Origin: an uncultured Candidatus Binatia bacterium
GTDB taxonomy: Bacteria > Desulfobacterota > Binatia > Bin18
Direction: 5' to 3'
Length of the DNA: 64,000 nt
NCBI GenBank assembly: GCA_965214605.1
Contig: OZ243961.1
Location: forward strand, 2,144,001-2,208,000
A program made the translations under genes and the position numbers. This document shows positions 2,664-59,018 of the stretch, one piece after another. Positions within the stretch are counted from its first letter, which is position 1; every line of letters begins with the position of its first letter. The notes beneath the pieces are model-generated. The model had not been told where the DNA came from. It saw only the letters and a list, made by a program, of their open reading frames with translations, and made no database searches.

Positions 2664-3512
2664 TCAGCCAGCTTCCCCGGCTTTCTCTGTCTCAATCACT
2701 CTGACCTCCACCGCGTGCTGTCCATGGCGCCCCTGGGCAATCTCAAAGGCGACCCAGGCTCCCGGTCTCAGGCTACGATCGCCCTGACCCGGAATACCAC
2801 TAAAGTGGACAAAGATCTCCTCGCCTTGCTCCGAGTGTATCATTCCCCGCCCACCGGCGAACCACACCACCCGACCCCGTCCCCGTCCAACTCTCTGCCA
2901 CGGTTTGACCGCAGCTTGTCCGTCCCAATACACGGCCGGAACGCGCACTGCTTTCACCCCGGGTGTATCCCAGGCGGCGTGTGAATAATCGGTCAGCTGT
3001 GCCTTGAGAGCCCGTATATCACGACGCAGCTCTTCCACGCTCGGCCGCCCGACCAGCCACCAGCCGTTATACACGCTGTGGATGGTCAGCTCCGGAGCCA
3101 AACATAGGGTATGCGGAATGGCCACATTAGGGTATTCCCCGTCGGTGTTATCGACGATGTCCAGCTGCTGAATCGCCCGCCGCTCGTGATCGCTCAGAAA
3201 AGGAAAGCGGGCACCCAAACCTGCCCGATAGGCGGCGGTGACAGCTGGCGTATCGGTGCTGATCGCCACCACGCGAGTTTTATTAAGTTCGACCTCGGGA
3301 TAAAAAGAGACCAGCTGGCTGAGCTGGAGACGATCTCTGGGACAGAAAAATCCGCGATACACCACAACGATCAGCGGTTGGCCGTGATCAAAGCCGAGGT
3401 GCCGGTCGAATTCGTCCGGGGCAGTCAGCTGCGATAGGCTGACGCGTCGACCGGTGTGGTCGGGTAGGGACAGATCGGGAAACTGAGCACCGACGTAAAG
3501 CGATGTAGACAT
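2664..3512 (-). CDS. Redoxin/AhpC-TSA-like domain fused to a C-terminal cold-shock (OB-fold) domain
   Basis: GAQFPDLSLPD...YRGFFCPRD...FPFLSD (peroxiredoxin-like); C-terminal GRVVWF...GMI...EEIFVHFSGI...RSLRPG..VAFEI..G..GQHAVEV (CSD pattern). Confidence 0.8.
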   Translation of the reverse strand: MSTSLYVGAQFPDLSLPDHTGRRVSLSQLTAPDEFDRHLGFDHGQPLIVVVYRGFFCPRDRLQLSQLVSFYPEVELNKTRVVAISTDTPAVTAAYRAGLGARFPFLSDHERRAIQQLDIVDNTDGEYPNVAIPHTLCLAPELTIHSVYNGWWLVGRPSVEELRRDIRALKAQLTDYSHAAWDTPGVKAVRVPAVYWDGQAAVKPWQRVGRGRGRVVWFAGGRGMIHSEQGEEIFVHFSGIPGQGDRSLRPGAWVAFEIAQGRHGQHAVEVRVIETEKAGEAG

Positions 3513-8628: not shown

Positions 8629-10557
8629 CTAAAAGCGCAGGATCAAACGGCCTTGGACGCCGGAGTCCATCCCCCCCTCGTGCGTCAGGGTGGTCTCTCC
8701 ACTGACCTGGGCGACTAGGTGTGCACCAACCCCGAACTCAATGCCGCCGCCAAAGACTGCGTCCGGCTCGTTGTCGGCCACCTTGCCGGAGACGGTTTGG
8801 CCGGAGCCAAGCCTTCCCCTGACCTGCTCTTCATCGCCAAAGTCGTGCTCGCCGGCGATGCGCAGATGCGGCGCGACCCACACGTCGCCAAACTGCAGCA
8901 GGCTGGACATCTGGCCGCCGATAAAGCCGACCCAGCTTTCGTGAACGCTGCTTCGAACCGACAAGGCAAGCGGGCCGGCGTTTTCCCGGTAGCCGTCAAG
9001 TTGAGATTCGGTCCAGCGGCCGCCAATGATCGGTCCGAAGATTGTGTTGCCATATTGGAAGTTATAGCCGCCGCTCAGGAGGGCGAACCAGGTTGATCCT
9101 TTCGGGTCGGCTGAGGCGTTGGGGCGCGGGCTAAAGCCGGTTGGCCGCGAGAAGCGGTAGTCGTCCGCAGCATAGCCGACGGCCGCGTCAATATACACCA
9201 CCCGGTTGCTCACCGTGCCGTAGATGGTTCCGAACCAGCTCTCCAGGTCGGCCCGGCCTCGTCCTTCGTCCAACTCCAGATCGGCCTCGCTGTAACCAAA
9301 CCCAGCCCCGAGCATCGCCAACTGATGGAACCGCCAGTCTAACCCGAGCATCCCGGTAGTCGTGTCATAATCAAAGCGGCGCTGGCCAGCGCCGCCGTCC
9401 CGGTCGCCCATACCGAAGTCGCCAGTGAGATGCAGGGAGAACTTTCCCACCGCAACCTCGGTGCCTGTGCCGAACCCGGAACGCGCGGACAGCAAGCGGG
9501 CTTCCATCAGGCGCTGTTGCGAGCGCGACGACAGCAGGCCCAGCATAGAACGGGCAGTTATGTCTGCCCCGGCGTTGGCCTTCATGGCGAGATAGGCGGC
9601 AACGTATTGGCCAGCAAGCTGGTGCGTCCGGGCGGTCGGATGGATACCGTCGTAGAATATGCCGGCGTCGGTCATCTCCGGAGTCGCACAGCTACGCACC
9701 TCAGAGCTGGACACTTCCGTATAGAAACAGGGCCGCTTTGTATAGGTAAAGCCGTAGAGAGCCGGGTTATCCAGCATATCAGCGAACAAATCGTCCATTG
9801 CCACAAGCGTGATGTCAAGGCTACGGACGGATTCAAGCGTGGTCACAGCTGTGAGCAGGGCGGTATTGTGGGCAGCGGTCAACTGGCTGAGGCTGGCTGA
9901 GAGCGCCGGGCCGAGGACTGTAGCGCGTGGCGTACTGCCCATATCTGGCAGGTTCAGAACGGCAAACCTTTTCTGACCGGCCTGAGCCAGCCTGCCGATG
10001 CCGGTGGCGATATTGCCGACGACCGTGCCGACAAGGGCTTGAGGATTGGGCACGCCGGTGGCAACCCGGTCAGCATAGTCTTGAGCTCCGACGAAGTAGA
10101 CGGCGAGGCTGTTCGGACCAGTCACTCCTCCCTCGATCGCTCTGCCGACCTGATCGAGCGCGTCAACATTCAGCAGGTTGAGCAACGCGGCAACAGACGG
10201 GTTTGGAGAGAAGTTCGTCTCTCCCGACTCCGCACCTGCAAAGGCGAAGTTAAAGACGGCTGACTCAGGGACATCGAGCAAGCTGGGCAGCGCCTCGGCA
10301 TATGTTGGGCCGTTGGAGAACCGGCCCGGGTAATACGGCGGACTAGGCGGCTGTACCGGCACCAGGAGGGGATACTGTGCGTTCAGGGCGGCGGTTGCCC
10401 GGTGCAGGTTGCCGTTGTCGGTCAGGCTGTCGCCGATGAAGAACAGGCTGTCCTGGGCCATAGCCGGCCGGCAGGTCAGCACGCCAGCCACCAGCAGCCC
10501 TACAGCGAGACTGTAGCGGACAAACCGCTGACTCTCTCCTGTGGTCTGTAATGTCAA
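8629..10557 (-). CDS. GDSL/SGNH esterase autotransporter (EstA-like)
   Basis: Signal peptide, FIGDSLTDNGN, GRFSNG, NFAFAGA, DGIHPT, C-terminal beta-barrel ending in F. Confidence 0.9.
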   Translation of the reverse strand: MTLQTTGESQRFVRYSLAVGLLVAGVLTCRPAMAQDSLFFIGDSLTDNGNLHRATAALNAQYPLLVPVQPPSPPYYPGRFSNGPTYAEALPSLLDVPESAVFNFAFAGAESGETNFSPNPSVAALLNLLNVDALDQVGRAIEGGVTGPNSLAVYFVGAQDYADRVATGVPNPQALVGTVVGNIATGIGRLAQAGQKRFAVLNLPDMGSTPRATVLGPALSASLSQLTAAHNTALLTAVTTLESVRSLDITLVAMDDLFADMLDNPALYGFTYTKRPCFYTEVSSSEVRSCATPEMTDAGIFYDGIHPTARTHQLAGQYVAAYLAMKANAGADITARSMLGLLSSRSQQRLMEARLLSARSGFGTGTEVAVGKFSLHLTGDFGMGDRDGGAGQRRFDYDTTTGMLGLDWRFHQLAMLGAGFGYSEADLELDEGRGRADLESWFGTIYGTVSNRVVYIDAAVGYAADDYRFSRPTGFSPRPNASADPKGSTWFALLSGGYNFQYGNTIFGPIIGGRWTESQLDGYRENAGPLALSVRSSVHESWVGFIGGQMSSLLQFGDVWVAPHLRIAGEHDFGDEEQVRGRLGSGQTVSGKVADNEPDAVFGGGIEFGVGAHLVAQVSGETTLTHEGGMDSGVQGRLILRF

Positions 10558-16792: not shown

Positions 16793-17185
16793 CCGGTGCT
16801 ACCAACACTAGCCTATCTCGAAAGCTTTCGTCAAGCGCGAGACTCCGTCCAGATCATCGTTCTGAGGCGTCTCCTAGGCGAGAGATCCCTCGTAGCAACC
16901 GCAGGCAACGCTGAGGAGCGGAAAACTCAAGGGCGGCAACTGCCCCACTCGATAATGAGCGATTGCAACCAACACGCCGGCACGCTCGCCGCCGGCGTGA
17001 GGTTTCGTTTATGACTAAGCCCAGTAACGGCCTCGGGGTCAGGACGGCACCAAGGCCGAATTGTCTGACTTAAGGGTTTGCCATACCAACATGAGGTGTC
17101 TTGCCTTTCGGTCTAGGCAGTGTAATGCCTGACGTGCTAAGAGGGCACGAGCGTCTGATCCAACAGAACACGAGGAGGACACAAC

Positions 17186-17728
17186 GTGGCAGACGACCAT
17201 CCTCATGGCCACCATCACGGTCCAGGTTTCCGTTTCTGTCCCAGATGCGGGGGGCGGCTGGAACGCAAAAAAGTCAAGGCCAATGAGCCCGAGCGGCGCG
17301 TGTGTGGTCGCTGTGCGTTTATCTCCTACGAAGATCCCAAAATCGCGGCCTGCACCATCCCGGTCATCGACAATAAGATCGTTCTGCTCAAACGCGGTAT
17401 CGAGCCCAGCCATGGCAAGTGGGTCTTTCCTGGCGGATTTATGGATCGGGGCGAACGGGTGGAGGACGCGGCCATTCGGGAAACCTGGGAAGAGGTCAAT
17501 CTCAAAGTCGAAATCGACCGGCTGCTCAACATCTACTCGTATACCGGTTACCCGGTCGTTATCGTGGTCTATCTGGTCAATGTCGTGGGCGGAGAGCTCA
17601 AAGCCATGGACGAAACCCTCGAGACGATGATCGTTGCTCCAGACGAGATCCCGTGGGATGAGCTGGCCTTTGACAGTACCCGGGACGCGCTGCGGGAGTA
17701 TGTGGCCTTAGTGACCACTTCGTCCTAG
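17186..17728 (+). CDS. NUDIX hydrolase with N-terminal Zn ribbon
   Basis: FCPRCG...CGRC; Nudix box GGFMDRGERVEDAAIRETWEEVNL. Confidence 0.93.
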   Translation: MADDHPHGHHHGPGFRFCPRCGGRLERKKVKANEPERRVCGRCAFISYEDPKIAACTIPVIDNKIVLLKRGIEPSHGKWVFPGGFMDRGERVEDAAIRETWEEVNLKVEIDRLLNIYSYTGYPVVIVVYLVNVVGGELKAMDETLETMIVAPDEIPWDELAFDSTRDALREYVALVTTSS

Positions 17729-17757
17729 GGACGATCGGCGAACCGTCCTCCACGCCT

Positions 17758-18573
17758 TTAGTCCAACCACTCGCGCTGACCCTTAATAAAGCCGGTCACA
17801 CTATCTACCGTTGTCTGCGGCCGCTCAATATTGAACAGATGGCTGGCGTTGGACAGGATGAGAAGCTCGGCATTTGGAATCCGGCGCGATAACACCACCG
17901 AGTTCTCAGGGGGGACTAAACCGTCCTGCTTGCCGGTAATGACCAAGCTGGGGACGTTGATCTGGGGCAGGCGCGCATAGGTATCGTGGCCCTGGATGGC
18001 TGCCATTTGGCTGACCATACCGTGCTTGGGTGTCGGATGGACTGCCGACAGCCGATTTAACTCAAGCAGAGAATCCATATGTTTCTGCATGAACCACGGC
18101 GTCACCGCCACCTTGGTCATAGCTAGGGCAGCTTCTTCGACGCTCACCGATTCAATATGCTCCAACATATGTAGCACCTCAGGGTCGTTGGAGAGCATCG
18201 TGTGCTCACCCCCGCAGTTTGTACAGCCAAGGGTCAGGCTTTTCACCCGCTCGGGATGGCGTAGAGCGAGTTCCTGGGCAATCATCCCGCCCATCGAAAT
18301 GCCGAAAATATGGGCGCTGTCGATGTCTAAGCCGTCCAGAAGCCCCGCCGTGTCGTCTGCGAACATCGGCATTGAGTACGGTTCATCCGGCTTATCACTC
18401 TGGCCCACGCCCCGGTTATCGAACGCAATCGTCCGAAAAGATTGGGCAAAGAGCGGGATATTCCAGCGCCAGCCGATAGAGCTGACGGTAAAGCCCATGA
18501 TCAGAATCAACGGCTCGCCACTGCCGTGTTCTTCATAGTATAGCGAAATTCCGTTGGATTGGAGATGCGGCAT
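17758..18573 (-). CDS. Alpha/beta hydrolase (3-oxoadipate enol-lactonase-like)
   Basis: FDNRGVGQSD, GISMGG, GKQD, ASH. Confidence 0.92.
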   Translation of the reverse strand: MPHLQSNGISLYYEEHGSGEPLILIMGFTVSSIGWRWNIPLFAQSFRTIAFDNRGVGQSDKPDEPYSMPMFADDTAGLLDGLDIDSAHIFGISMGGMIAQELALRHPERVKSLTLGCTNCGGEHTMLSNDPEVLHMLEHIESVSVEEAALAMTKVAVTPWFMQKHMDSLLELNRLSAVHPTPKHGMVSQMAAIQGHDTYARLPQINVPSLVITGKQDGLVPPENSVVLSRRIPNAELLILSNASHLFNIERPQTTVDSVTGFIKGQREWLD

Positions 18574-18588
18574 AGCTTAACCCCTCCT

Positions 18589-18858
18589 TTACAGATAGGG
18601 AATAAAATTCTTCATCGCCGACAGCAGAGCTTCGAGGTCGGCGTAGCCTTCCAACTCGTCGTATAGGAAATAATACTGGCTGCGGACCTCGTTCTCGTCT
18701 TGTTCGTTCTCGTCCACCGATACCGCGGCCTCAAATTCTTTGAGCATGGCTTGAGTCTGGAGTTTTGTCTCAACTGGAATCGTATCGTCGGTCGCAATCA
18801 CCAGACGCGTCTGATGGATCAGGCGGCCAACGATATAGGCATTACTGTGTTCGGTCAT
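18589..18858 (-). CDS. Small acidic hypothetical protein (MTEHSNAY..., 89 aa)
   Basis: GAGGTG before the ATG; co-directional with neighbours; its 5' part is duplicated at 20984-21104. Confidence 0.75.
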   Translation of the reverse strand: MTEHSNAYIVGRLIHQTRLVIATDDTIPVETKLQTQAMLKEFEAAVSVDENEQDENEVRSQYYFLYDELEGYADLEALLSAMKNFIPYL

Positions 18859-18923
18859 ATACACCTCGGTCAGACGTTTACGAGCTCTCACCCAGCTTTT
18901 TCTCTTTCAACTCCCGCTTCCAG
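18664..18923. repeat. Direct repeat, left copy (260 bp): 5' part of the small gene + 3' end of the TPR gene
   Basis: Matches 20984-21169 apart from a 74-bp deletion (equivalent to 18761-18834) and 3 substitutions. Confidence 0.92.
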
Positions 18924-21088
18924 CTGTCCTTGCCGTCCTCCGGCGTGGGCTCTGGTGGCGACAGGGCGTCGAGATTGAAACTTGCCTCCCATGACTTGTC
19001 CTCGCCGGGAGTGAACCCGCCGGTCAACTGACCGGTGGTGATACTGGCGATCTCGTAATCGGGCAGATCGACGGTCACCATGCACGCGCCGCGGAACGCG
19101 AGGCCGGACTCCTCGTAGAAGTCGAAGGTACGGGACTCGAACCCGTGGGCCGCGCGATCTTCGGCAAGGGCATCCGGATCGACGGGCGTGATGTTCAGGA
19201 AGAACGCCCCCCTTCTGTCCTTCGCGCGACACGGTTCCTTGACGTAGGCCAAGGTGCTGGCGCCGGTGCCATCGGACTGGAGATACACGTCGAAGTGCGA
19301 GCGACTCACGGGCTCGTCGGACCGGACCGACTGGTACGCTGACCAGGACGCCTCGATCAGGCTGGCCGAGTCGTACAGAAACATCACCCGGTTGTCCGGG
19401 GTGAGCGTGGGGCCTCCCGCGGCGTAGTCGCGTGTGAGCAGGAAGTCGGCGCGATCGAGATTGCCATTGTATACAATGAGGCTTCCGGACAGATAGTAGT
19501 GCAGCGCGTGGCGCGCGCCGGCGAACCGGACGACCACCCCGGAGTCGTATTGCGTCGCGACGACGACGCTCCTGCCCGCCACCGTTTCCCGGATGACTTC
19601 GAAGTCGGCAACGAGCGCCTTCTGGAAATCCGCCGTCCCCCCGCCGTGATTGATCTGGACTATCTCGTAGGCGGAAAAAACGAAAACCAGTAGCGCGGCG
19701 CCGGCCAGGCCGATGAGCGCGGCGCCGCCGGCCAAGCGGCGCACGCCCAGTAGAACGAGCGAGAACAGGACCAGCGGAATACCGAGATAGAACAGACCCT
19801 CATAGGCGTGGAAGGCAGTGTTGTAGCGTAGGGGCAGCGACCAGCAGAAGCCGGATAGCACCAGGGCCGCCGGCGGAAGCCGCTGGCGGAGCCGGCGGAC
19901 AAGCATCAGGCCGATCAGGGACGCTCCGAACATGACGTAGCCACCGGTGGCGCTCTGCGGTCCCCACGGCGTGGTCGAGTATATCGCCGCGGCATCATTG
20001 ACACGCCGCGCCATGGAGACGGGAAGCGAGCTACCGCCGCCGATGCGCGAGAACTGCTCCTCCAGGAATGACGGCCAGTCCAAGCCACCGTAGGCGTGGT
20101 AGGCCGTATCCACTCCGACGCGCTTCAGCATCGACTGGAAGGACGGCAATTCCGTCAGTGTGTGCTGACTCAGTGCGCGCCATTCATTGGCAAAATTGAA
20201 GGTCAGGAGCGACACGCCGATAAGCAACGCCACCGCGCCGAGCGTCAGGTAGCGACCGAGAAGTGGCGCGGCGGTCGAAGCCGTCAAGTGCTTCCGGTTG
20301 CCGTGAGCGGGACCCGCCGAACGCACACGGACAAGTTCGCTAACCACGCCGAGCGCAATGAATGCCGCCAGCAGCCCGAAGACGTGCCAGCCCAGCAGCA
20401 GCGACACCAGAGTCTTGACCAGCAACTGCCGGAAGCGGCCCTCTTGGACGAAGACGACCAGGCCGTGAAAGGTCAACATGATGCCGAACAGATCCATGCT
20501 CGTCTTGGGGTGGATCATGTCGTTGTAATACAGGCAATAGGGCGAGGAGAACGCCAGGAGCGTGGCCGTCAGGGCGATCCACCGGTTGGATGGGGAATCA
20601 ATGAGCCTGAGGACCGCAAGGTACGCCAGAACCGCAGCGGCGGCGAAAAACAACAGCATCACCATCCTGGCGGCGTAGATCGTCGCCGACAGACCGCCGC
20701 CGAAGGGCAGGGTGGCCAGCTTCAAGAGCGCGTAACCACCCATCGGAAAGCGGTTGTACGGGGCATAGCCGACAGGGAACCCCGGATTTGGAAACTGTCG
20801 CTGGAACATCAGAAGACCGTGTTCGGGAGAGAGGTTCACGGCGACCGCAAGGTGCTCCGACGACACCCAGTTGTGGTCGCCGGGCCGGTAGAAATACCCC
20901 CGGTCGCCGCCGAAGACGAAGACGGTCGACAGCGCCAGCAACAGCAGACCCAAAGGAAGGAACGACCGGCTGGTCGGATCCCTTAGGAAATAATACTGGC
21001 TGCGGACCTCGTTCTCGTCTTGTTCGTTCTCGTCCACCGATACCGCGGCCTCAAATTCTTTGAGCATGGCTTGAGTCTGGATAGGCAT
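18878..21088 (-). CDS. Multi-TM membrane protein copy A (GT-C/ArnT-PMT-like by inference), chimeric at both ends
   Basis: Core 18924-20983 near-identical to 21601-23660; N-terminus comes from the small acidic gene, C-terminal WKRELKEKKLGESS from the TPR gene. Confidence 0.7.
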   Translation of the reverse strand: MPIQTQAMLKEFEAAVSVDENEQDENEVRSQYYFLRDPTSRSFLPLGLLLLALSTVFVFGGDRGYFYRPGDHNWVSSEHLAVAVNLSPEHGLLMFQRQFPNPGFPVGYAPYNRFPMGGYALLKLATLPFGGGLSATIYAARMVMLLFFAAAAVLAYLAVLRLIDSPSNRWIALTATLLAFSSPYCLYYNDMIHPKTSMDLFGIMLTFHGLVVFVQEGRFRQLLVKTLVSLLLGWHVFGLLAAFIALGVVSELVRVRSAGPAHGNRKHLTASTAAPLLGRYLTLGAVALLIGVSLLTFNFANEWRALSQHTLTELPSFQSMLKRVGVDTAYHAYGGLDWPSFLEEQFSRIGGGSSLPVSMARRVNDAAAIYSTTPWGPQSATGGYVMFGASLIGLMLVRRLRQRLPPAALVLSGFCWSLPLRYNTAFHAYEGLFYLGIPLVLFSLVLLGVRRLAGGAALIGLAGAALLVFVFSAYEIVQINHGGGTADFQKALVADFEVIRETVAGRSVVVATQYDSGVVVRFAGARHALHYYLSGSLIVYNGNLDRADFLLTRDYAAGGPTLTPDNRVMFLYDSASLIEASWSAYQSVRSDEPVSRSHFDVYLQSDGTGASTLAYVKEPCRAKDRRGAFFLNITPVDPDALAEDRAAHGFESRTFDFYEESGLAFRGACMVTVDLPDYEIASITTGQLTGGFTPGEDKSWEASFNLDALSPPEPTPEDGKDSWKRELKEKKLGESS

Positions 21089-21169
21089 TACTGTGTTCGG
21101 CCATATCCACCTCGGTCAGACGCTTACGAGCTCTCACCCAGCTTTTTCTCTTTCAACTCCCGCTTCCAG
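20984..21169. repeat. Direct repeat, right copy (186 bp, internally deleted)
   Basis: Counterpart of 18664-18923. Confidence 0.92.
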
Positions 21170-21474
21170 TCGAGCACGCGGGCCTTGGCCGCCTCAGCCT
21201 CAGCCTCAGAAATCATACCCTTCTGCTGATAGAAGCGAGACAAGATGGTAAACCCCATGGCATCATCCGGGGTCAGGGCGATTAGCCGTTTGGCCGTCTC
21301 AATCGCTTCATCGAGCATGTCCTTATCGGCATACGCGTGGGCTAGATCGTGCACGGCATCGACGTAGGTGGGATCGATGTCGAGAATTGCTGTGTAGGTC
21401 TCAATCGCCCTGTCGGCTTCCCCGTCACACAGCAGATCGTAGGCTCGATCGTACAGTTCTTCGATAGACAGCAT
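21124..21474 (-). CDS. Small tetratricopeptide-repeat protein
   Basis: AIETYTAILDIDPTYVDAVHDLAHAY, LTPDDAMGFTILSRFY; GAGGAG RBS. Confidence 0.88.
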   Translation of the reverse strand: MLSIEELYDRAYDLLCDGEADRAIETYTAILDIDPTYVDAVHDLAHAYADKDMLDEAIETAKRLIALTPDDAMGFTILSRFYQQKGMISEAEAEAAKARVLDWKRELKEKKLGESS

Positions 21475-21593
21475 GAATGACTCTCCTCAAATAAGAATCC
21501 TGCCGTGTTCTTGGCACGACTAGAGGTCCTCACCTCCTCCATGTGCGGTGAGAGGTGCTGGGGTGCATATTGCTCCCGGTGAACACTTGCCTC

Positions 21594-23675
21594 TCACGTT
21601 CTGTCCTTGCCGTCCTCCGGCGTGGGCTCTGGTGGCGACAGGGCGTCGAGATTGAAACTTGCCTCCCATGACTTGTCCTCGCCGGGAGTGAACCCGCCGG
21701 TCAACTGACCGGTGGTGATACTGGCGATCTCGTAATCGGGCAGATCGACGGTCACCATGCACGCGCCGCGGAACGCGAGGCCGGACTCCTCGTAGAAGTC
21801 GAAGGTACGGGACTCGAACCCGTGGGCCGCGCGATCTTCGGCAAGGGCATCCGGATCGACGGGCGTGATGTTCAGGAAGAACGCCCCCCTTCTGTCCTTC
21901 GCGCGACACGGTTCCTTGACGTAGGCCAAGGTGCTGGCGCCGGTGCCATCGGACTGGAGATACACGTCGAAGTGCGAGCGACTCACGGGCTCGTCGGACC
22001 GGACCGACTGGTACGCTGACCAGGACGCCTCGATCAGGCTGGCCGAGTCGTACAGAAACATCACCCGGTTGTCCGGGGTGAGCGTGGGGCCTCCCGCGGC
22101 GTAGTCGCGTGTGAGCAGGAAGTCGGCGCGATCGAGATTGCCATTGTATACAATGAGGCTTCCGGACAGATAGTAGTGCAGCGCGTGGCGCGCGCCGGCG
22201 AACCGGACGACCACCCCGGAGTCGTATTGCGTCGCGACGACGACGCTCCTGCCCGCCACCGTTTCCCGGATGACTTCGAAGTCGGCAACGAGCGCCTTCT
22301 GGAAATCCGCCGTCCCCCCGCCGTGATTGATCTGGACTATCTCGTAGGCGGAAAAAACGAAAACCAGTAGCGCGGCGCCGGCCAGGCCGATGAGCGCGGC
22401 GCCGCCGGCCAAGCGGCGCACGCCCAGTAGAACGAGCGAGAACAGGACCAGCGGAATACCGAGATAGAACAGACCCTCATAGGCGTGGAAGGCAGTGTTG
22501 TAGCGTAGGGGCAGCGACCAGCAGAAGCCGGATAGCACCAGGGCCGCCGGCGGAAGCCGCTGGCGGAGCCGGCGGACAAGCATCAGGCCGATCAGGGACG
22601 CTCCGAACATGACGTAGCCACCGGTGGCGCTCTGCGGTCCCCACGGCGTGGTCGAGTATATCGCCGCGGCATCATTGACACGCCGCGCCATGGAGACGGG
22701 AAGCGAGCTACCGCCGCCGATGCGCGAGAACTGCTCCTCCAGGAATGACGGCCAGTCCAAGCCACCGTAGGCGTGGTAGGCCGTATCCACTCCGACGCGC
22801 TTCAGCATCGACTGGAAGGACGGCAATTCCGTCAGTGTGTGCTGACTCAGTGCGCGCCATTCATTGGCAAAATTGAAGGTCAGGAGCGACACGCCGATAA
22901 GCAACGCCACCGCGCCGAGCGTCAGGTAGCGACCGAGAAGTGGCGCGGCGGTCGAAGCCGTCAAGTGCTTCCGGTTGCCGTGAGCGGGACCCGCCGAACG
23001 CACACGGACAAGTTCGCTAACCACGCCGAGCGCAATGAATGCCGCCAGCAGCCCGAAGACGTGCCAGCCCAGCAGCAGCGACACCAGAGTCTTGACCAGC
23101 AACTGCCGGAAGCGGCCCTCTTGGACGAAGACGACCAGGCCGTGAAAGGTCAACATGATGCCGAACAGATCCATGCTCGTCTTGGGGTGGATCATGTCGT
23201 TGTAATACAGGCAATAGGGCGAGGAGAACGCCAGGAGCGTGGCCGTCAGGGCGATCCACCGGTTGGATGGGGAATCAATGAGCCTGAGGACCGCAAGGTA
23301 CGCCAGAACCGCAGCGGCGGCGAAAAACAACAGCATCACCATCCTGGCGGCGTAGATCGTCGCCGACAGACCGCCGCCGAAGGGCAGGGTGGCCAGCTTC
23401 AAGAGCGCGTAACCACCCATCGGAAAGCGGTTGTACGGGTCGTAGCCGACAATGCCCCCCGGATTCGGAAACTGTCGCTGGAACATCAAAAGACCGTGTT
23501 CGGGAGAGAGGTTCACGGCGATCGCAAGCTGCTCCGACGACATCCAGTTGTGGTCACCGGGCCGGTAGAAATACCCCCGGTCGCCGCCGAAGACGAAGAC
23601 GGTCGACAGCGCCAGCAACAGCAGGCCCAAGGGGAGGAACGACCGGCTGATCGGATCCCTCTGGTGCTTGTCCAT
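21594..23675 (-). CDS. Multi-TM membrane protein copy B (most complete), with Cys-containing soluble C-terminal domain
   Basis: Many hydrophobic segments, then FDVYL..LAYVKEPC...FFLNITP.D...C....LPDY.I.SI.TGQ; likely ATG at 23675 after GAAGGG. Confidence 0.8.
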   Translation of the reverse strand: MDKHQRDPISRSFLPLGLLLLALSTVFVFGGDRGYFYRPGDHNWMSSEQLAIAVNLSPEHGLLMFQRQFPNPGGIVGYDPYNRFPMGGYALLKLATLPFGGGLSATIYAARMVMLLFFAAAAVLAYLAVLRLIDSPSNRWIALTATLLAFSSPYCLYYNDMIHPKTSMDLFGIMLTFHGLVVFVQEGRFRQLLVKTLVSLLLGWHVFGLLAAFIALGVVSELVRVRSAGPAHGNRKHLTASTAAPLLGRYLTLGAVALLIGVSLLTFNFANEWRALSQHTLTELPSFQSMLKRVGVDTAYHAYGGLDWPSFLEEQFSRIGGGSSLPVSMARRVNDAAAIYSTTPWGPQSATGGYVMFGASLIGLMLVRRLRQRLPPAALVLSGFCWSLPLRYNTAFHAYEGLFYLGIPLVLFSLVLLGVRRLAGGAALIGLAGAALLVFVFSAYEIVQINHGGGTADFQKALVADFEVIRETVAGRSVVVATQYDSGVVVRFAGARHALHYYLSGSLIVYNGNLDRADFLLTRDYAAGGPTLTPDNRVMFLYDSASLIEASWSAYQSVRSDEPVSRSHFDVYLQSDGTGASTLAYVKEPCRAKDRRGAFFLNITPVDPDALAEDRAAHGFESRTFDFYEESGLAFRGACMVTVDLPDYEIASITTGQLTGGFTPGEDKSWEASFNLDALSPPEPTPEDGKDRT

Positions 23676-24002
23676 CCCTTCACTACCTGACCTGGTTACC
23701 TTGATATCCAAGTAGCGCTTATGACCGCATTGTGTCGTCGTGTAATTCTCTGATAGAAAAGGATATTTTCCATGTCATACAACCCTATGCAGGGGGCTGG
23801 TCATCCTGCTTTACAAATTGCCGAGAACGTCCTGCTTTTAGTATCTTTGCTTTCATCCAACAGCCTCACTCAGATTTGACTCTGAAATCCTCCAGAAAAT
23901 ATTCCAGCTTTACCCCTGCCACCCTAGCAAACTTGGAGGCGTCCAACATCCCCCTCTGGTCAACCCGGAATGCCTCTCCTCACGGCGCTGATGTGTGGAC
24001 CA

Positions 24003-25822
24003 CAAATAAGAATCCTGCCGTGTTCTTGGCACGACTAGAGGTCCTCACCTCCTCCATGTGCGGTGAGAGGTGCTGGGGTGCATATTGCTCCCGGTGAACA
24101 CTTGCCTCTCACGTTCTGTCCTTGCCGTCCTCCGGCGTGGGCTCTGGTGGCGACAGGGCGTCGAGATTGAAACTTGCCTCCCATGACTTGTCCTCGCCGG
24201 GAGTGAACCCGCCGGTCAACTGACCGGTGGTGATACTGGCGATCTCGTAATCGGGCAGATCGACGGTCACCATGCACGCGCCGCGGAACGCGAGGCCGGA
24301 CTCCTCGTAGAAGTCGAAGGTACGGGACTCGAACCCGTGGGCCGCGCGATCTTCGGCAAGGGCATCCGGATCGACGGGCGTGATGTTCAGGAAGAACGCC
24401 CCCCTTCTGTCCTTCGCGCGACACGGTTCCTTGACGTAGGCCAAGGTGCTGGCGCCGGTGCCATCGGACTGGAGATACACGTCGAAGTGCGAGCGACTCA
24501 CGGGCTCGTCGGACCGGACCGACTGGTACGCTGACCAGGACGCCTCGATCAGGCTGGCCGAGTCGTACAGAAACATCACCCGGTTGTCCGGGGTGAGCGT
24601 GGGGCCTCCCGCGGCGTAGTCGCGTGTGAGCAGGAAGTCGGCGCGATCGAGATTGCCATTGTATACAATGAGGCTTCCGGACAGATAGTAGTGCAGCGCG
24701 TGGCGCGCGCCGGCGAACCGGACGACCACCCCGGAGTCGTATTGCGTCGCGACGACGACGCTCCTGCCCGCCACCGTTTCCCGGATGACTTCGAAGTCGG
24801 CAACGAGCGCCTTCTGGAAATCCGCCGTCCCCCCGCCGTGATTGATCTGGACTATCTCGTAGGCGGAAAAAACGAAAACCAGTAGCGCGGCGCCGGCCAG
24901 GCCGATGAGCGCGGCGCCGCCGGCCAAGCGGCGCACGCCCAGTAGAACGAGCGAGAACAGGACCAGCGGAATACCGAGATAGAACAGACCCTCGTCGGTG
25001 TGCATGTGAGTGTTGTGGCGTAGGGGCAGCGACCAGCAGAAGCCGGATAGCACCAGGGCCGCCGGCGGAAGCCGCTGGCGGAGCCGGCGGACAAGCATCA
25101 GGCCGATCAGGGACGCTCCGGACATGACGTAGCCACCGGTGGCGCTCTGCGGTCCCCACGGCGTGGTCGAGTATATCGCCGCGGCATCATTGACACGCCG
25201 CGCCATGGAGACGGGAAGCGAGCTACCGCCGCCGATGCGCGAGAACTGCTCCTCCAGGAATGACGGCCAGTCCAAGCCACCGTAGGCGTGGTAGGCCGTA
25301 CTCACTCCGATGCGCTTCAGCATCGACTGGAAGGACGGCAATTCCGTCAGTGTGTGCTGACGGATACGGTTCAGGGCGCGCCATTCATTGGCAAAATTGA
25401 AGGTCAGGAGCGACACGCCGATAAGCAACGCCACCGCGCCGAGCGTCAGGTAGCGACCGAGAAGTGGCGCGGCGGTCGAAGCCGTCAAGTGCTTCCGGTT
25501 GCCATGATCGGGACCCGCCGAACGCACACGGACAAGTTCGCTAACCACGCCGAGCGCAATGAATGCCGCCAGCAGCCCGAAGACGTGCCAGCCCAGCAGC
25601 AGCGACACCAGAGTCTTGACCAGCAACTGCCGGAAGCGGCCCTCTTGGACGAAGACGACCAGGCCGTGAAAGGTCAACATGATGCCGAACAGATCCATGC
25701 TCGTCTTGGGGTGGATCATGTCGTTGTAATACAGGCAATAGGGCGAGGAGAACGCCAGGAGCGTGGCCGTCAGGGCGATCCACCGGTTGGATGGGGAATC
25801 AATGAGCCTGAGGACCGCAAGG
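24003..25822. repeat. Tandem duplicate of the 21488-based segment (offset 2515), including 113 bp of shared flank
   Basis: CAAATAAGAATCCTGCC... at 21488 and 24003; identity ends at ...GACCGCAAGG 25822. Confidence 0.92.
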
Positions 25823-25848
25823 GAATTTCCCACCTCTTCTCCCAACAC
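24109..25848 (-). CDS. Multi-TM membrane protein copy C, 5'-truncated, with a new short N-terminus
   Basis: Lacks roughly the first 120 codons of copy B; in frame with GTG/TTG after GGAG in the flank. Confidence 0.65.
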   Translation of the reverse strand: MLGEEVGNSLAVLRLIDSPSNRWIALTATLLAFSSPYCLYYNDMIHPKTSMDLFGIMLTFHGLVVFVQEGRFRQLLVKTLVSLLLGWHVFGLLAAFIALGVVSELVRVRSAGPDHGNRKHLTASTAAPLLGRYLTLGAVALLIGVSLLTFNFANEWRALNRIRQHTLTELPSFQSMLKRIGVSTAYHAYGGLDWPSFLEEQFSRIGGGSSLPVSMARRVNDAAAIYSTTPWGPQSATGGYVMSGASLIGLMLVRRLRQRLPPAALVLSGFCWSLPLRHNTHMHTDEGLFYLGIPLVLFSLVLLGVRRLAGGAALIGLAGAALLVFVFSAYEIVQINHGGGTADFQKALVADFEVIRETVAGRSVVVATQYDSGVVVRFAGARHALHYYLSGSLIVYNGNLDRADFLLTRDYAAGGPTLTPDNRVMFLYDSASLIEASWSAYQSVRSDEPVSRSHFDVYLQSDGTGASTLAYVKEPCRAKDRRGAFFLNITPVDPDALAEDRAAHGFESRTFDFYEESGLAFRGACMVTVDLPDYEIASITTGQLTGGFTPGEDKSWEASFNLDALSPPEPTPEDGKDRT

Positions 25849-26202
25849 ATACTCCGGTTGAGAACAGCCCCACCTACGGAAAACGAGCGAGTTGATATGG
25901 ACAAAGCTTTCTCCCGTCTTTGGGCAACAGCTCCCTGTGGGGTCTGGAGTGTTGGTTCTCTTTCCTCCAATACCAACCTATGCTGGAGCTTTCTGATAGG
26001 GCATAACTTCTCCTCGTGTCTCGCCTTCCGACACTCCTTATAGGCGATTCTCCCAGATTCTTGCGTAGCGTGATCAGCATAACCGCCTCGCTCTTCAGCT
26101 TGCTGTCTAGAGGAATGTTCGCTGCGCTCATGGCCGCCTTTTCCCGGAGTGTTGCGATGAGCCTATTTACACCATACGACCAAGCCCGGTACAGTTTGCC
26201 GT

Positions 26203-27291
26203 ATGGCCGAAATGGGTGTTGAAACGGACGTACTCAATTTTATTGCCGTCCCTGAGGGCAGAGATTTTAACGCGTTGGCGCTAACCGTTTTTGCTCATCA
26301 GTTCGAGCGCAACAAGCCGTATCAACGCTTTTGCGTCGCCCGGGGCGCCAACCCTGATCGCGTCACCCGCTGGCAGGATATCCCGGCTGTGCCGACCGTT
26401 GCATTTAAAGAGTTGGATCTCAGCTGTGGTCCACCCCAAAAGATTTTTCGGACCAGCGGCACCACCCGCGGCCAGGACAAACGGGGCCGTCATCTGGTCC
26501 CCGACCTACGTCTGTATCACGCCTCGGCCCTGGCCCATTTCGATCAGTGTGTCGTGCCCGACGGTAGGCAGCTGCGGGTATTGGCCCTTATTCCTTCCCT
26601 GTCCGTCCGCCCGGATTCCTCGCTCAGCCAGATGGCAGAGTGGATTATCGCTGAACGAGGTGAACCGGGCAGCCAATTTTTTATTGACTCCACTGGTATT
26701 CAGCTCGAGTCCTTTGCCGCCGCCCTAACCCAGGCCCAAGCCGAGGGCAGCCCAGTCTGTATTCTGGCCATCACCGCTGCTCTGGTGGCCTTCTTCGACT
26801 GGTGTGCCCGCCAGCAGACCGCCTTCGCCTTGCCCGCCAGCAGCCGCGTCATGGACACCGGCGGCGATAAAGGTCAGCGACGACCGCTGTCTCGGAAGGG
26901 GCTTTTTCACGCCTGCTGGAAGTATCTGAAAGTCGCCGGCTACTCCTGTATCAATGAATATGGCATGACCGAGATGGCCTCACAGTTTTATGACAATGTG
27001 TTGTATAACCGATTTTATCACGGGAACGAGCCACGCTATAAAATCGGGCCGGCCTGGACCCGCACCCTCGTGGTCGACCCGGACAGCCTCCAAGCAGTCC
27101 CGCTGGGTCAGCCCGGCGTCCTCCGCCACTTTGACCTGGCCAACTGTGGATCGGTCATGGCGATTCAGACCGATGATGTCGGCCATCTGACGCGAGCCGG
27201 ATTCGAGTTGAACGGCCGCATCCCGGGCACTGAGGCACGCGGGTGTGCCTTGGCCTTGGACGAGTTTTTAGCCACGCTGGACAAGAGCTAA
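26203..27291 (+). CDS. LuxE/PaaK-like acyl-protein synthetase (long-chain fatty acid ligase)
   Basis: IPAVPTVAFK, FRTSGTT, MDTGGDKG, NEYGMTEMASQFY, IQTDDVG, GR....EARGC. Confidence 0.9.
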   Translation: MAEMGVETDVLNFIAVPEGRDFNALALTVFAHQFERNKPYQRFCVARGANPDRVTRWQDIPAVPTVAFKELDLSCGPPQKIFRTSGTTRGQDKRGRHLVPDLRLYHASALAHFDQCVVPDGRQLRVLALIPSLSVRPDSSLSQMAEWIIAERGEPGSQFFIDSTGIQLESFAAALTQAQAEGSPVCILAITAALVAFFDWCARQQTAFALPASSRVMDTGGDKGQRRPLSRKGLFHACWKYLKVAGYSCINEYGMTEMASQFYDNVLYNRFYHGNEPRYKIGPAWTRTLVVDPDSLQAVPLGQPGVLRHFDLANCGSVMAIQTDDVGHLTRAGFELNGRIPGTEARGCALALDEFLATLDKS

Positions 27292-27326
27292 CACAACCAA
27301 GCCGCCGCTGTGGCGTTTGACTGCCT

Positions 27327-28619
27327 ATGGCCGCCCTCACGCCCGACTCCCTACGTACCATTATCAACGGCCTGTTAGCCGCCCGAGAACGCTCCCTCGT
27401 CCGGCGTCCGGTCCACGAGATCCTAACCAGTATTGACGCGCTTGCGGCTAGCTTTCTTGACCCCAACTCAAGCGAACGCCGACATGCCGAGGCGCTCCTG
27501 TCCGCAGAAAGCGGACTCTCGCCGAAGATGGCCCGGCATAGCCTGCCGCTTATTTTCCAGGAGTATCGGTCCGAGCGTTTACACGGTCTTTTGGCCGCTG
27601 AACTCGGCACCAGCGCCGTCCTCGACCGGGTTGAGAACGGTCTCCGAGCCTGGGGACCGCGCTTGATGACCCACGTCCTAGCAGGCAATCTTCCCGGTGC
27701 AGGCCTGGATAACATCGTCTTCTCGCTGTTGGTGAAATCAGCCACGTTAGCGAAAGCCGCCTCCTCAGGCGCCGGCTTGCAACGGCTGTTCGCCCACATT
27801 TTGCGTCAGCATGATCCCGAGCTCGGCGCCTGTCTAGCCCTGGTCAGCTGGCCAGGCGGCAAGGCAGAGCTTGAGAATATTGCGTTTTCCGAGGCTGGGC
27901 TGGTTGTGGCCTCGGGTTCGGACGAAAGTTTGGCAGCGATTCGTCAGCGCGTTTCAGGGCGATTCATCGGTTACGGCCATAAACTGAGCCTGAGTCTCAT
28001 CACCCACGACGCCCTCGATCAGTCTCAAAAGTCGGCCGAGCGGGCGGCCTACGATGTGGTGCTGTTTGACCAACGCGGCTGTCTGTCCCCCCAGGTAGTG
28101 TATGTTGAAGACCACGGAGCGGTCTCACCAAAGGTGTTTGCTACGCTGTTGGCAGAAGCGCTCGCAGACTGGCAGACTCGCTTACCCCGGGGGCGGATCA
28201 GTCCGGCGGTCAGCACCCAGATACGGCGAGTGCGAGACGAGGCCGAATGGCAGGCTCTGAGTGGCAAAGACGTTGTCCTCCACTCCAGCCCACGGGGAAC
28301 GGAGTGGACGGTGATCTATGAGGCCGATCCGACGTTTGCACCTGGACCGCTCTACCGAACGGTTCGGGTCAAACCGCTCGTCGGGCTCGAGCAGCTCGCC
28401 ACGCTGCTCGAGCCGTGGCGGCCGTATCTCGAAGCGGTCGGGACTGTCGTGCCGAGCGAGGTCCGTCGCCGCCAGACGCTGCTGGAGGTCCTGGCCAACA
28501 GCGGGGTGAGTCGCATCTGTCCGCTCGGCACAATGCAGATTCCGCCGCTCAGCTGGCGACACGGTGGCCGACCCCGGCTGGCTGAGCTGGTCCGCTGGAT
28601 GACAAGCGATCTGGGCTGA
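27327..28619 (+). CDS. LuxC-like acyl-CoA/acyl-protein reductase
   Basis: HVLAGNLPG, GYGHKLS, FDQRGCLSP (catalytic Cys), GVSRICPLGTMQ.PP..W.HGG. Confidence 0.9.
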   Translation: MAALTPDSLRTIINGLLAARERSLVRRPVHEILTSIDALAASFLDPNSSERRHAEALLSAESGLSPKMARHSLPLIFQEYRSERLHGLLAAELGTSAVLDRVENGLRAWGPRLMTHVLAGNLPGAGLDNIVFSLLVKSATLAKAASSGAGLQRLFAHILRQHDPELGACLALVSWPGGKAELENIAFSEAGLVVASGSDESLAAIRQRVSGRFIGYGHKLSLSLITHDALDQSQKSAERAAYDVVLFDQRGCLSPQVVYVEDHGAVSPKVFATLLAEALADWQTRLPRGRISPAVSTQIRRVRDEAEWQALSGKDVVLHSSPRGTEWTVIYEADPTFAPGPLYRTVRVKPLVGLEQLATLLEPWRPYLEAVGTVVPSEVRRRQTLLEVLANSGVSRICPLGTMQIPPLSWRHGGRPRLAELVRWMTSDLG

Positions 28620-28670
28620 GGCAGACGCCCTATTTGCCCACGCCATACGCCTGATCTATGCTTTGCCCCT

Positions 28671-29879
28671 ATGAGCACCCTAAGTGACGATTTCCTGCGT
28701 TTTGTGTGTCAAACCTCGCCCGAACCTATGGGTATCGAGGTCGCCTCAGCCCACGGCTGCGTGGTAGTCGACACAACTGGCCGCGAGTATCTGGACCTGC
28801 TGTCCGGCATCGGTGTTGCCAGTATCGGTCATACTCATCCGGCCGTGGTACAGGCTGTCCAAGACCAGGCCGCCCATTATCTGCATACCATGGTCTACGG
28901 AGAATACATCCAGGAGCCCCAGGTACGGCTGGCGGGTCGCTTGGCCGAGATTGCGCCTGACTCGCTGTCGGTCTCCTATTTTACCAACAGTGGAACCGAA
29001 GCAGTGGAAGGCGCTCTCAAAACCGCCCGCAAATATACCAGCCGTTCACACCTCGTCAGTTTTGTAGGCAGCTTCCACGGCGATACCCTCGGCTCAGTCT
29101 CCGTGGGCGGCAATCCAACGTACCGCGTCCCGTTTGAACCGCTGCTCCCGACGGTGACGTTTTTAGCTTTTAACGATAGGCAGGCGCTCAGCGCGATTGA
29201 CGACAGCGTCGCTGCCGTCATTATCGAACCGATTCAGGGCGAAGGCGGCGTACAGATTCCGGATACCGCATTTCTGCCGGCCCTGCGTCAACGCTGCTCC
29301 GAGGTCGGCGCAGTGCTGATCTTCGACGAAGTCATCACCGGTTTTGGACGGACAGGAAAAGTCTTTGCCGCCGAACACTGGCAGGTCAGCCCCGATATCC
29401 TGGTGTTGGCCAAAGCGTTAGGAGGAGGCATGCCGCTCGGAGCATTTATGAGTAGACCGGAGATCTTGCAAACCCTGTCGACCGATCCACCCCTGGCCCA
29501 CGTGACAACATTCGGCGGACATCCGGTGTGCTGTGCGGCCGGACTGGCTGCTCTGGACGTCATGTTTGCAGAGCGGCTTCCCCAGCGGGCCCAGGAAAAA
29601 GGACACGAGTTCGTGGCGAAACTGCACGCCCTGGTTGGTCGCGGCGGGCTGACCGGAGTCCGGGGCCGGGGCTTACTCATCGGACTTGACTTTAGCGATC
29701 CCGGGACAACGCGACGTTTCGTCAAGCGGTGTTTTACCGACGGTCTGGTGCTAGGTTGGACGCTGCACGACGATAGCGTCGTGCGCTTAGCTCCACCATT
29801 AATCATCTCGTCGGCCGAGATTACTCAGGCGATTGAGGTCATGGGTAGAGCGCTTGATGGCGGCTCAAGGTCATTATAA
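28671..29879 (+). CDS. Class III PLP aminotransferase (acetylornithine/putrescine aminotransferase-like)
   Basis: YLDLLSGIGV..IGH, NSGTEAVEGA, FHG, EPIQGEGG, DEVITGFGRTG, AKALGGG, TTFGG. Confidence 0.93.
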   Translation: MSTLSDDFLRFVCQTSPEPMGIEVASAHGCVVVDTTGREYLDLLSGIGVASIGHTHPAVVQAVQDQAAHYLHTMVYGEYIQEPQVRLAGRLAEIAPDSLSVSYFTNSGTEAVEGALKTARKYTSRSHLVSFVGSFHGDTLGSVSVGGNPTYRVPFEPLLPTVTFLAFNDRQALSAIDDSVAAVIIEPIQGEGGVQIPDTAFLPALRQRCSEVGAVLIFDEVITGFGRTGKVFAAEHWQVSPDILVLAKALGGGMPLGAFMSRPEILQTLSTDPPLAHVTTFGGHPVCCAAGLAALDVMFAERLPQRAQEKGHEFVAKLHALVGRGGLTGVRGRGLLIGLDFSDPGTTRRFVKRCFTDGLVLGWTLHDDSVVRLAPPLIISSAEITQAIEVMGRALDGGSRSL

Positions 29880-35509: not shown

Positions 35510-36211
35510 CTACCTCCGAGGGAAAAAGTACGAAAAGCCGGCTAAGAAAGAGTGAGAGTTCCTACCGTCATTTTCGTCATAGAGGCTGGCGTTTGACGAA
35601 TGCCGGAAACGATAGCCCAGACTCAGGGAGACATTATTGTCCAGAAAGTACGACAGGCCGGCTCCAGCCATCTCGGTGAAACTAAAGCCCCCGCCCAGGT
35701 CATAGCCCTGGTAGTCCTGGTACAGGACTCCTAGACCGCCCTCAATATACGGAGACAGCCGGGCACCTAGGTCAAAATGGTAGCTTAAGACCGGGAGCAT
35801 CAGACCAGCTTCAATTGAGGCGTTCCGCTTTCTCCCGCGCCTTACCGGCTTTGAGTCTCTCTCCTCTTCGTCGGTTCCCTGGAAGGTGCTATGCCGCGGA
35901 CCCTCTTCTGCGTTCGGGATGCTACTCCCCTCTCTCTGGTTGGAGTGGCGCGTCACCGCAGACAAGAAGGGCTCGGTCGCAATCTCAAACACGCCTTCAG
36001 GAAAGATCCATGGTTTTCCTTTAAAGAGAACATAGCCGATATGAAAGTTGAGCGGCACGCTATCTATATTCCGTTCACTAACAGAATAGCCCGAGCGCAG
36101 GCCGATATTCCACGAACCCTCGGCAGGCCCCGTCTTTTGGGCCTGGACGGCGCTCACTCCCAACAGGAGCACTCCCAGCAGGCAACCGGCTATGCGCATA
36201 GCCTTTTTCAT
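35510..36211 (-). CDS. Acyloxyacyl hydrolase / PagL-like outer-membrane beta-barrel
   Basis: Signal peptide, PYIEGGLG, F...AGAG, YRFRHSSNA...N.G.N. Confidence 0.8.
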   Translation of the reverse strand: MKKAMRIAGCLLGVLLLGVSAVQAQKTGPAEGSWNIGLRSGYSVSERNIDSVPLNFHIGYVLFKGKPWIFPEGVFEIATEPFLSAVTRHSNQREGSSIPNAEEGPRHSTFQGTDEEERDSKPVRRGRKRNASIEAGLMLPVLSYHFDLGARLSPYIEGGLGVLYQDYQGYDLGGGFSFTEMAGAGLSYFLDNNVSLSLGYRFRHSSNASLYDENDGRNSHSFLAGFSYFFPRR

Positions 36212-46896: not shown

Positions 46897-46909
46897 GTAT
46901 GGCTGCACT

Positions 46910-50008: not shown

Positions 50009-50021
50009 CTATCCCTCATCA

Positions 50022-50897: not shown

Positions 50898-50932
50898 GAC
50901 AGCCCTGTTCGATCTTCGCCCGCGTGTCTGTC

Positions 50933-51955: not shown

Positions 51956-52236
51956 AGCGTGTGACGTTCCTCTGCTCACTGACCAGTCTTCGACCGTTCC
52001 ATGCCGCACCGCGCGGACGGAACCAACATGGAATTTCTGTATGTTCCGCCCTCATCCTCGGCCCTCCGCCCGCCCGTCTTGTGCCGGATAATGGACAGAA
52101 AAGTGTCCACGAGCAGGGGGCGCGACAGGCTTTTCAATAATGCCTGAACGACCGTATCTCAACCAAATTAAGGGATGTATGCCCATTCTTCAATCTCCTT
52201 GGTCACGAGGAGCCGCTCGCCTATGCGTTATCCGGC

Positions 52237-57743: not shown

Positions 57744-57746
57744 GTC

Positions 57747-58970: not shown

Positions 58971-59018
58971 AGGCTGCCCAAGGTGGAAAATCCTGACCGT
59001 TTCATCAAGACAAGAGCA

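Follow-up and report, generated by a model that had tools for sequence, protein, structure and literature searches.

Mycobacterial embCAB consists of three tandem paralogous genes for arabinosyltransferases of the GT-C class of glycosyltransferases, pilE/pilS is a silent-cassette gene conversion system, and integron cassettes are recognised by an IntI-type integrase nearby and by attC sites with RYYYAAC/GTTRRRY core sites at the cassette 3′ end. The catalytic Asp proposed for GT-C enzymes follows the first transmembrane (TM) helix, as stated in an excerpt of PMC11127046. In the present study we analysed a 64,000-nt stretch of DNA (called the window throughout) from an uncultured Candidatus Binatia bacterium (contig OZ243961.1, positions 2,144,001 to 2,208,000), in which a membrane-protein gene is present in three near-identical copies, A, B and C, whose repeat ends do not coincide. 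We consider it probable that these copies form a birth-and-death array of one GT-C-fold glycosyltransferase gene, produced by young local segmental duplications.

The layout of the copies was determined by a repeat search and by aligning 17000-28000 with the whole window in a self-BLASTN search. On the minus strand these revealed a coding unit of ~2.06 kb in three direct copies, with start-to-start periods of 2677 and 2515 nt. The unit of A (18924-20983) matched that of B (21601-23660) over 2060 nt with 16 mismatches and no gaps (99.2% identity); B 21485-23298 aligned with C 24000-25822 at 98.6% identity with three gap openings, and A 18924-20621 aligned with C 24116-25822. All three copies were open reading frames (ORFs) on the minus strand: an intact gene of 693 aa for B (21594..23675), a chimeric ORF of 736 aa for A (18878..21088) and a 5′-truncated ORF of 579 aa for C (24109..25848), starting from a GTG in its flank. 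A sequence-only reading of this DNA had proposed the triplication with its coordinates and open frames, a B protein that begins MDKHQ and ends RT before the stop, and a start of C at a flank GTG/TTG, and all of these were borne out by the searches and translations (B reads MDKHQ...KDRT-stop, and C is read from the GTG). The fixed 3′ end which it had ascribed to the unit did not hold; the common border at 18924/21601/24116 was set by A alone, and B and C remained identical for 116 nt more (21485-21600 and 24000-24115). The G+C content of the unit was the maximum of the window, at 0.63-0.65 vs 0.54-0.59 in the immediate flanks.

The ORF of B extends over 21594..23711, and its likely start is the ATG at 23675, which is preceded by a GAAGGG Shine-Dalgarno-like site; the 693-aa protein is also present in the protein collection. 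The 116-nt 3′ flank of B (21485..21600, minus strand) recurred after C and not after A, as seen from BLASTN and the junctions. The B/C pair formed an arrangement U-S-U, in which U is 1814 nt and S is the 701-nt spacer of the 2515-nt period, made up of the B upstream region (23661..23999, minus strand; repeat search and BLASTN) and codons 1-126. BLASTN, junction analysis, tblastn and the structural model described below agreed on the truncation of C: its homology to A and B begins at 25822, equivalent to residue 127 of the 693-aa protein and inside model helix 103-132, and residues 1-126 are missing, and with them TM1, the D32-bearing first periplasmic loop and the greater part of the helix that follows. 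The flank upstream of C (25823..26202), which reaches up to a divergent LuxE-like gene, was unrelated by BLASTN and junction analysis, and no remnant of the missing 5′ part was found in it. A terminator scan of the minus strand gave three predicted terminators, all of them within the coding repeat.

Copy A was found to have borrowed both of its termini from host genes, as the sequence-only reading had claimed; translations and tblastn identified the tail of a TPR-repeat protein at one end and a piece of a small ORF at the other. Along the minus strand, B and its 116-nt 3′ flank are succeeded by the TPR gene (21474..21124); next come a 186-nt piece, then the A unit and finally the 260-nt original of this piece. 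The TPR gene, located between B and A, encodes 116 aa (Pfam TPR_19, TPR_2 and others, E 1e-10; also seen by tblastn). The small ORF (18589..18891, minus strand; 100 aa from GTG or ~89 aa from ATG 18858) is intact downstream of A by translation and had no Pfam or NCBIfam match. The downstream, complete copy of the local segment (18664..18923, minus strand, 260 nt; repeat search, BLASTN and junctions) combines the final 46 nt of the TPR gene with a 19-nt spacer and with the small ORF up to about codon 78. Its upstream partial duplicate (20984..21169, minus strand, 186 nt; repeat search, BLASTN, junctions, direct inspection of the sequence and tblastn) contains the TPR tail, the 19-nt spacer and the small-ORF start, continues directly with small-ORF codons ~46-77, and is without 74 internal nt relative to the 260-nt segment, with a 1-nt ambiguity at the break. 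On the two sides of this break 18664-18761 equals 20984-21081 (98/98 nt) and 18835-18923 matches 21081-21169 (86/89 nt); the 46 nt that close the TPR gene recur at 18878-18923.

The 74-nt deletion shifts the frame, so that the small-ORF ATG at 21104 meets a stop after 17 codons, and the ATG at 21088 in the same 186-nt duplicate opens a frame that runs into A and is its start codon. The resulting ORF of A, as established by translation, junction analysis and tblastn, is made up of 35 foreign N-terminal residues, the unit read from 20983 to 18924, which joins in frame at B codon 6 (RDP...), and 15 C-terminal residues. The N-terminus consists of MPI and small-ORF residues 46-77, and tblastn traced A residues 4-35 to the partial small-ORF copy. 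The C-terminus reads ...EDGKD-S-WKRELKEKKLGESS before the stop, where Ser is the junction codon and the last 14 residues are an exact copy of the TPR-protein tail; the 260-nt segment provides the stop codon of A as well as the intact start of the small ORF. The whole catalytic core is kept in A, which may function if it is translated.

The differences between the copies were distributed very unevenly. All 16 A/B mismatches fell within 20763-20983, the 5′ 221 of the 2060 nt (P 3e-16 for such a placement), in the first periplasmic loop region, and amounted to seven synonymous and seven non-synonymous codon changes, while A and B were identical across the 1839 nt of 18924-20762. The 15 substitutions and the 9-nt indel that separate B from C were likewise confined to one end of their alignment, its first 829 of 1707 nt; these two did not differ over the 3′ ~880 nt or the 116-nt flank, and the 3′ ~880 nt were identical in all three copies. 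In C the 9 extra nt lie at 25362-25370, and there is also a patch where seven substitutions are crowded into 22 nt, which turned YNTAFHAYE into HNTHMHTDE and left the family-invariant R391, H397 and E400 untouched. The differences were polarised against four outgroup genes from other genomes (L001-L004, described below). At the 16 A/B sites A and B each had some states present in no outgroup and the remaining sites were mixed; at four sites (positions 728, 916, 1106 and 1233) A and B shared derived states vs C. Taken with the identical tracts, this polarisation suggests that the copies are not all equally young and that long tracts were later homogenised, and the strong clustering of the differences indicates gene conversion. 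It was also observed that the duplicated small-ORF piece (18664-18761 vs 20984-21081) is 100% identical though the adjoining 221 nt of A differ by 7% from B, and parts of the A duplication seem to differ in age or conversion history.

None of the three proteins matched a family in Pfam or NCBIfam. In order to examine the fold, B was modelled with AlphaFold2 on an alignment of 51 sequences (predicted local distance difference test, pLDDT, 77.5; predicted TM-score 0.80). The model has a helical membrane domain at residues 14-473 with ~11-12 long helices, a loop after the first helix which holds a beta-hairpin and short helices, and a beta-rich C-terminal domain. A Kyte-Doolittle plot gave eight hydrophobic peaks, some of them wide enough for two helices, and the membrane domain falls within the range of about 7-13 TM helices of the GT-C superfamily. 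The sequence-only reading had called the protein GT-C-like and had suggested a Foldseek comparison as a check. When this was run against PDB, all 33 matches at E ≤ 1e-3 were GT-C enzymes (PglB, ArnT, STT3/AglB, AftA/B/D, EmbA/B/C, ALG9/12, DPY19 and Pmt4), the best of them being PglB (6gxc_A, E 9e-7). Furthermore, D32 and R33, which come immediately behind helix 14-30, were conserved in ≥ 90% of the 51 sequences; the extracytoplasmic loop after TM1 thus carries a conserved acidic residue, whose position fits the description in the excerpt of PMC11127046, and D32 is predicted to act in catalysis. Foldseek and the conserved Asp after TM1 together support the GT-C-like character of the protein at the level of the fold. 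Among the nearest ESM-Atlas clusters were one of PMT_2 and one labelled 'RgtA/B/C/D-like'.

The C-terminal module of ~130 aa contains two invariant Cys (C590 and C639), which fit a periplasmic disulfide; it is present once here and up to several times in longer relatives. The C-terminal domain modelled alone, from 17 sequences (pLDDT 69.5), had only weak generic Ig/FN3-like matches in Foldseek (E ≥ 7e-3). The fold-level evidence supports B being a polytopic inner-membrane GT-C-fold glycosyltransferase with a periplasmic beta-rich C-terminal domain. Such a protein would transfer a sugar from a polyprenyl-phosphate-linked donor to an envelope glycan or protein in the periplasm, D32 after TM1 would act as the catalytic base, and the C-terminal module would help to hold the acceptor. 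B is probably active as an enzyme, and C, which is without the catalytic loop, is most likely a pseudogene.

To place the gene among its relatives, protein and genome collections were searched. A word-indexed protein search scored 8000 candidates, of which 1031 were relatives at E ≤ 0.001 and none of these relatives bore a name, and an exhaustive profile search of 1.84 billion representatives returned 2896 at E ≤ 1e-3, of which 1166 were at E ≤ 1e-30; the family thus amounts to ~2,900 cluster representatives at 50% identity. A genome scan gave 18 loci (cited below by L numbers) in metagenome-assembled genomes (MAGs) labelled Gammaproteobacteria/Pseudomonadales, Nitrospirales, Binatia, Vicinamibacterales, Dehalococcoidia/Chloroflexota, Caldilineaceae and Latescibacterota. 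Tandem copies, from two to at least nine, were present at four of these 18 loci, which adds Nitrospirota, Latescibacterota and Chloroflexota to the window as phyla with arrays. There were two copies with 93% identity at L006, six with 60-87% identity at L007, and two divergently oriented copies with 65% identity at L015. The largest array, at L010 (OZ242010.1, 1-18741), had at least nine head-to-tail genes, of which seven are complete, ~30 nt apart and 77-84% identical, with partial copies at both ends, and it may continue past the fetched stretch. Truncated or frame-broken copies occurred at five of the 18 loci (L001, L002, L007, L011 and L016).

In a quick maximum-likelihood tree of 28 rows, from which L004, L011, L013, L014, L016 and L017 were left out as having no ORF of at least 450 aa that aligned over 350 residues, each array formed its own clade, the three copies of the window included (Shimodaira-Hasegawa-like approximate likelihood ratio test, SH-aLRT, 94-100). 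L003, which comes from a Nitrospirales MAG (OZ244060.1; 9911-12028 aligning with window 21613-23633), fell within a clade of gammaproteobacterial type with the Pseudomonadales locus L002, away from the Nitrospirales arrays L006 and L007. The window gene shared 84% nucleotide identity with L003 and 88-89% with L001 and L002, both from Gammaproteobacteria/Pseudomonadales MAGs, in each case only up to the gene borders. L003 looks like the product of a transfer of the bare gene between phyla; the gene has evidently passed phylum boundaries and tends to amplify in place after arrival. Neighbour genes differed at every locus and were mostly housekeeping genes, and across 12 loci no conserved neighbour was found that would name the donor or the acceptor.

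A few single loci deserve mention. At L016 (OY729430.1, 6611-13213) a copy with internal stop codons lies between the genes for the large and small subunits of ribonucleotide reductase. L001 (OZ243976.1, 12006-14329) is the only locus with an LPG_synthase_TM-family membrane protein and a family 2 glycosyltransferase (GT2) after the homologue, a possible donor-supply pair, and an rve integrase is located 5 kb upstream of this homologue. No paper on this GT-C-fold family was found in a full-text literature search, an absence which is no proof that it is unpublished.

The geometry of the repeats and the local origin of the flanks of A support local amplification, one of the two origins that the sequence-only reading had offered. 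The copies lie head to tail and carry flank and neighbour-gene sequence with them, their junctions are novel and their identity tracts are mosaic, which is the pattern of tandem segmental duplication. Microhomology was 0-1 nt at every junction, which points to illegitimate rather than site-specific recombination. From these directly observed relationships we infer the following order and mechanism of events. The B/C pair would have arisen by a simple 2515-bp tandem duplication of the B upstream region, the gene and the 116-nt 3′ flank, after which the upstream copy, C, would have lost the S part with the first ~126 codons. A second duplication, which reached from B codon 6 past the TPR gene and into the small ORF as far as ~codon 78 (2060 + 431 + 260 nt), would have produced A. 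The downstream duplicate would then have lost 431 bp (the greater part of the TPR gene along with the 116-nt flank and a 10-nt spacer), which would have fused A in frame to the TPR tail, and the upstream partial small ORF would have lost 74 bp. As an alternative to these two extra deletions, A would also result from one replication event in which the template was switched several times. Gene conversion would later have homogenised the long tracts.

Several observations weigh against this account of a locally duplicated GT-C enzyme. The two-duplication scheme requires at least three extra deletions, and the order of the events is not recoverable. A small-ORF piece with 100% identity beside a 7%-diverged 5′ end of A is not predicted by a duplication of a single age, and a third, unseen donor copy elsewhere in the genome is conceivable. 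The junctions and the copy number are known from the assembled sequence alone, and a promoter scan found no promoter-like site on the minus strand. As for the enzyme itself, none of the 51 family members searched against Pfam at E ≤ 1 matched any GT-C model at E ≤ 0.01, the best being PMT at E 0.26 for one member, and the sole match of a PDB profile search with the protein was a spurious one to an RND transporter (E 0.0013). The TM-scores to solved GT-C structures were modest, at 0.31-0.43. Neither a polyprenyl-phosphate sugar synthase (GT2) nor a flippase adjoined the gene in the window or occurred within ±4.5 kb at any of the 12 other loci examined, and L001 alone had a GT2, downstream of the homologue; with no such gene adjacent, the donor and the acceptor named above are guesses.

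The other origin offered by the sequence-only reading was a mobile coding cassette with a variable 5′ end. It is quite improbable that such a cassette, integron-like or of an unknown kind, was inserted three times, since the A/B and B/C repeat pairs end differently on both sides, and A is flanked by the local 260-nt segment and its 186-nt partial duplicate and not by a short target duplication. The idea draws on a family that moves between phyla, on similarity to L001-L003 that stops at the gene borders, on the nesting of L003 apart from other Nitrospirales copies, on copies placed among unrelated housekeeping genes, such as the two ribonucleotide reductase genes of L016, and on the unit having the highest G+C of the window. 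However, no transposase, integrase or recombinase domain was detected by Pfam in the window ORFs of at least 90 aa (13 + 46 proteins, E ≤ 1e-5 to 0.01), in agreement with what had been noted earlier about the surroundings, and a search of ±4.5 kb around the gene at 12 further loci detected no recombinase (E ≤ 1e-8); one rve integrase lies 5 kb from the L001 copy. None of 13 short inverted pairs around B was located at both unit ends as a terminal inverted repeat. A search for attC sites, made by the core-site motif and not with a dedicated attC model, found GTTRRRY at no junction, its count in the window being 87 against 89.6 expected by chance, and the fold of the 116-nt 3′ flank was ordinary compared with shuffles (z -1.38). 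The window contained no tRNA gene and no Rfam family, and tblastn found no homologue of the family among 72,556 records of plasmids and 50,697 of phages. Two defined classes of element were tried and rejected: an integron cassette for want of an integrase domain, a junctional core site and any remarkable fold of the 3′ flank, and an insertion sequence or transposon for want of a transposase and terminal inverted repeats and in view of the 260-nt and 186-nt segments in place of a short target-site duplication.

A different possibility, which we regard as unlikely, is a locus of programmed variation, in which B would be expressed and C and A would serve as donor cassettes that swap patches by gene conversion and so vary specificity loops. 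The patchwise nature of the differences would suit such a locus, as in the C patch with its three invariant residues kept, and so would the A/B differences in the first periplasmic loop region. The paralogues of L010 and L007 were most variable in blocks 31-45, 226-240, 301-345 and 481-495 and in parts of 556-630, and 5′-truncated copies recur in relatives. But there are three copies only, with ~30 differences in total, ordinary decay with ectopic conversion gives the same patterns, and the large arrays elsewhere consist of complete genes ~30 nt apart, which resemble co-expressed paralogues rather than silent cassettes. It is very unlikely indeed that one gene or several strain variants were wrongly assembled as three copies; near-identical 2-kb repeats are prone to such errors, but each copy carries substitutions or indels of its own and is joined to different flanks at junctions that no other copy has, the gene sits on a contig of 4,312,128 nt, which suggests long-read data, and tandem arrays of the family appear in four independent assemblies. 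Local duplication of one gene, followed by conversion and decay of its copies, is therefore the explanation we retain. As a doubtful extension of it, an unclassified GT-C enzyme might be exchanged between phyla that share a habitat and expand repeatedly into arrays whose intact, chimeric and truncated copies reshuffle periplasmic specificity loops by conversion. If this were true, the array itself would serve to generate diversity of envelope glycans, and its earliest stage would be represented by the window.

Other genes of the window were also recorded. Divergent from C, a LuxE-like acyl-protein synthetase, a LuxC-like acyl-CoA reductase and a class-III aminotransferase lie in a row (26203-29879, plus strand) and may constitute a fatty aldehyde/amine pathway. 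The remaining genes described here are on the minus strand. An ORF at 2664-3512 joins an AhpC/TSA peroxiredoxin to a C-terminal cold-shock DNA-binding domain, an unusual fusion, and may instead merge two genes. A GDSL lipase is fused to an autotransporter beta-domain at 8629-10557, and this fusion together with PagL at 35510-36211 points to a diderm (Gram-negative) host. The row at 44225-52009, comprising BatD, TPR, VWA, VWA/BatA, an ORF without Pfam match, DUF58 and a MoxR AAA protein, is a classic Bat/MoxR aerotolerance-type operon. At 54298-59838 a HAMP histidine kinase, a periplasmic binding protein, a response-regulator-SpoIIE phosphatase, a STAS protein and an anti-sigma-type kinase with HATPase_c_2 make up a partner-switching module, and a single ORF of 412 aa at 62504-63742, which contains both the alpha-chain and the beta-subunit N-terminal domain of nitrile hydratase, is possibly a fused enzyme.

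Compared with described GT-C enzymes that use lipid-linked donors (ArnT, PglB/STT3, PMT, EmbA/B/C, AftA/B/D and the GT136 enzyme ORF12), the B protein is alike in its polytopic helical membrane domain and in the periplasmic loop after TM1 with a conserved Asp, here D32. Its beta-rich extracytoplasmic C-terminal domain resembles the carbohydrate-binding modules of Emb, AftD and ORF12, as far as these are described in the excerpt of PMC11127046. It differs from the named families in that no sequence model of Pfam, NCBIfam or PDB detects it and the structural similarity scores stay at 0.31-0.43, and also in its ~130-aa C-terminal module with two invariant Cys and only weak Ig/FN3-like fold matches. 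The family is thus without a Pfam or NCBIfam model; were its acceptor identified, it would count as a new family of the GT-C class and could help to explain envelope tailoring among bacteria that live together.

The Gtr-type three-component systems of glycan modification (GtrA/GtrB/Gtr GT-C; also the GT136 system) would be similar in having a stand-alone GT-C enzyme that decorates an envelope glycan, and at L001 a GT2 and an LPG_synthase_TM protein come after the homologue, whereas the window gene has no adjacent GT2 synthase or flippase and no phage context. With pilE/pilS the locus shares a full-length copy beside a 5′-truncated one, patchy differences and conversion-like identical tracts; unlike that system it has one truncated copy and no cassette library, and its product would be an enzyme rather than a surface antigen. 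In layout the locus is like embCAB, with three head-to-tail GT-C genes from local duplication, each with a C-terminal periplasmic domain. The Emb paralogues, however, are old, diverged, all intact and functionally distinct, whereas the copies described here are 98.6-99.2% identical, one of them beheaded and one chimeric. The triplication would be textbook gene birth and death, and it offers a clean snapshot of how an in-frame chimera and a beheaded copy are formed. The sequence-only reading had taken it for a candidate undescribed system; tandem paralogous GT-C genes are already a known arrangement, and what is new at this locus is the sequence family rather than the mechanism.

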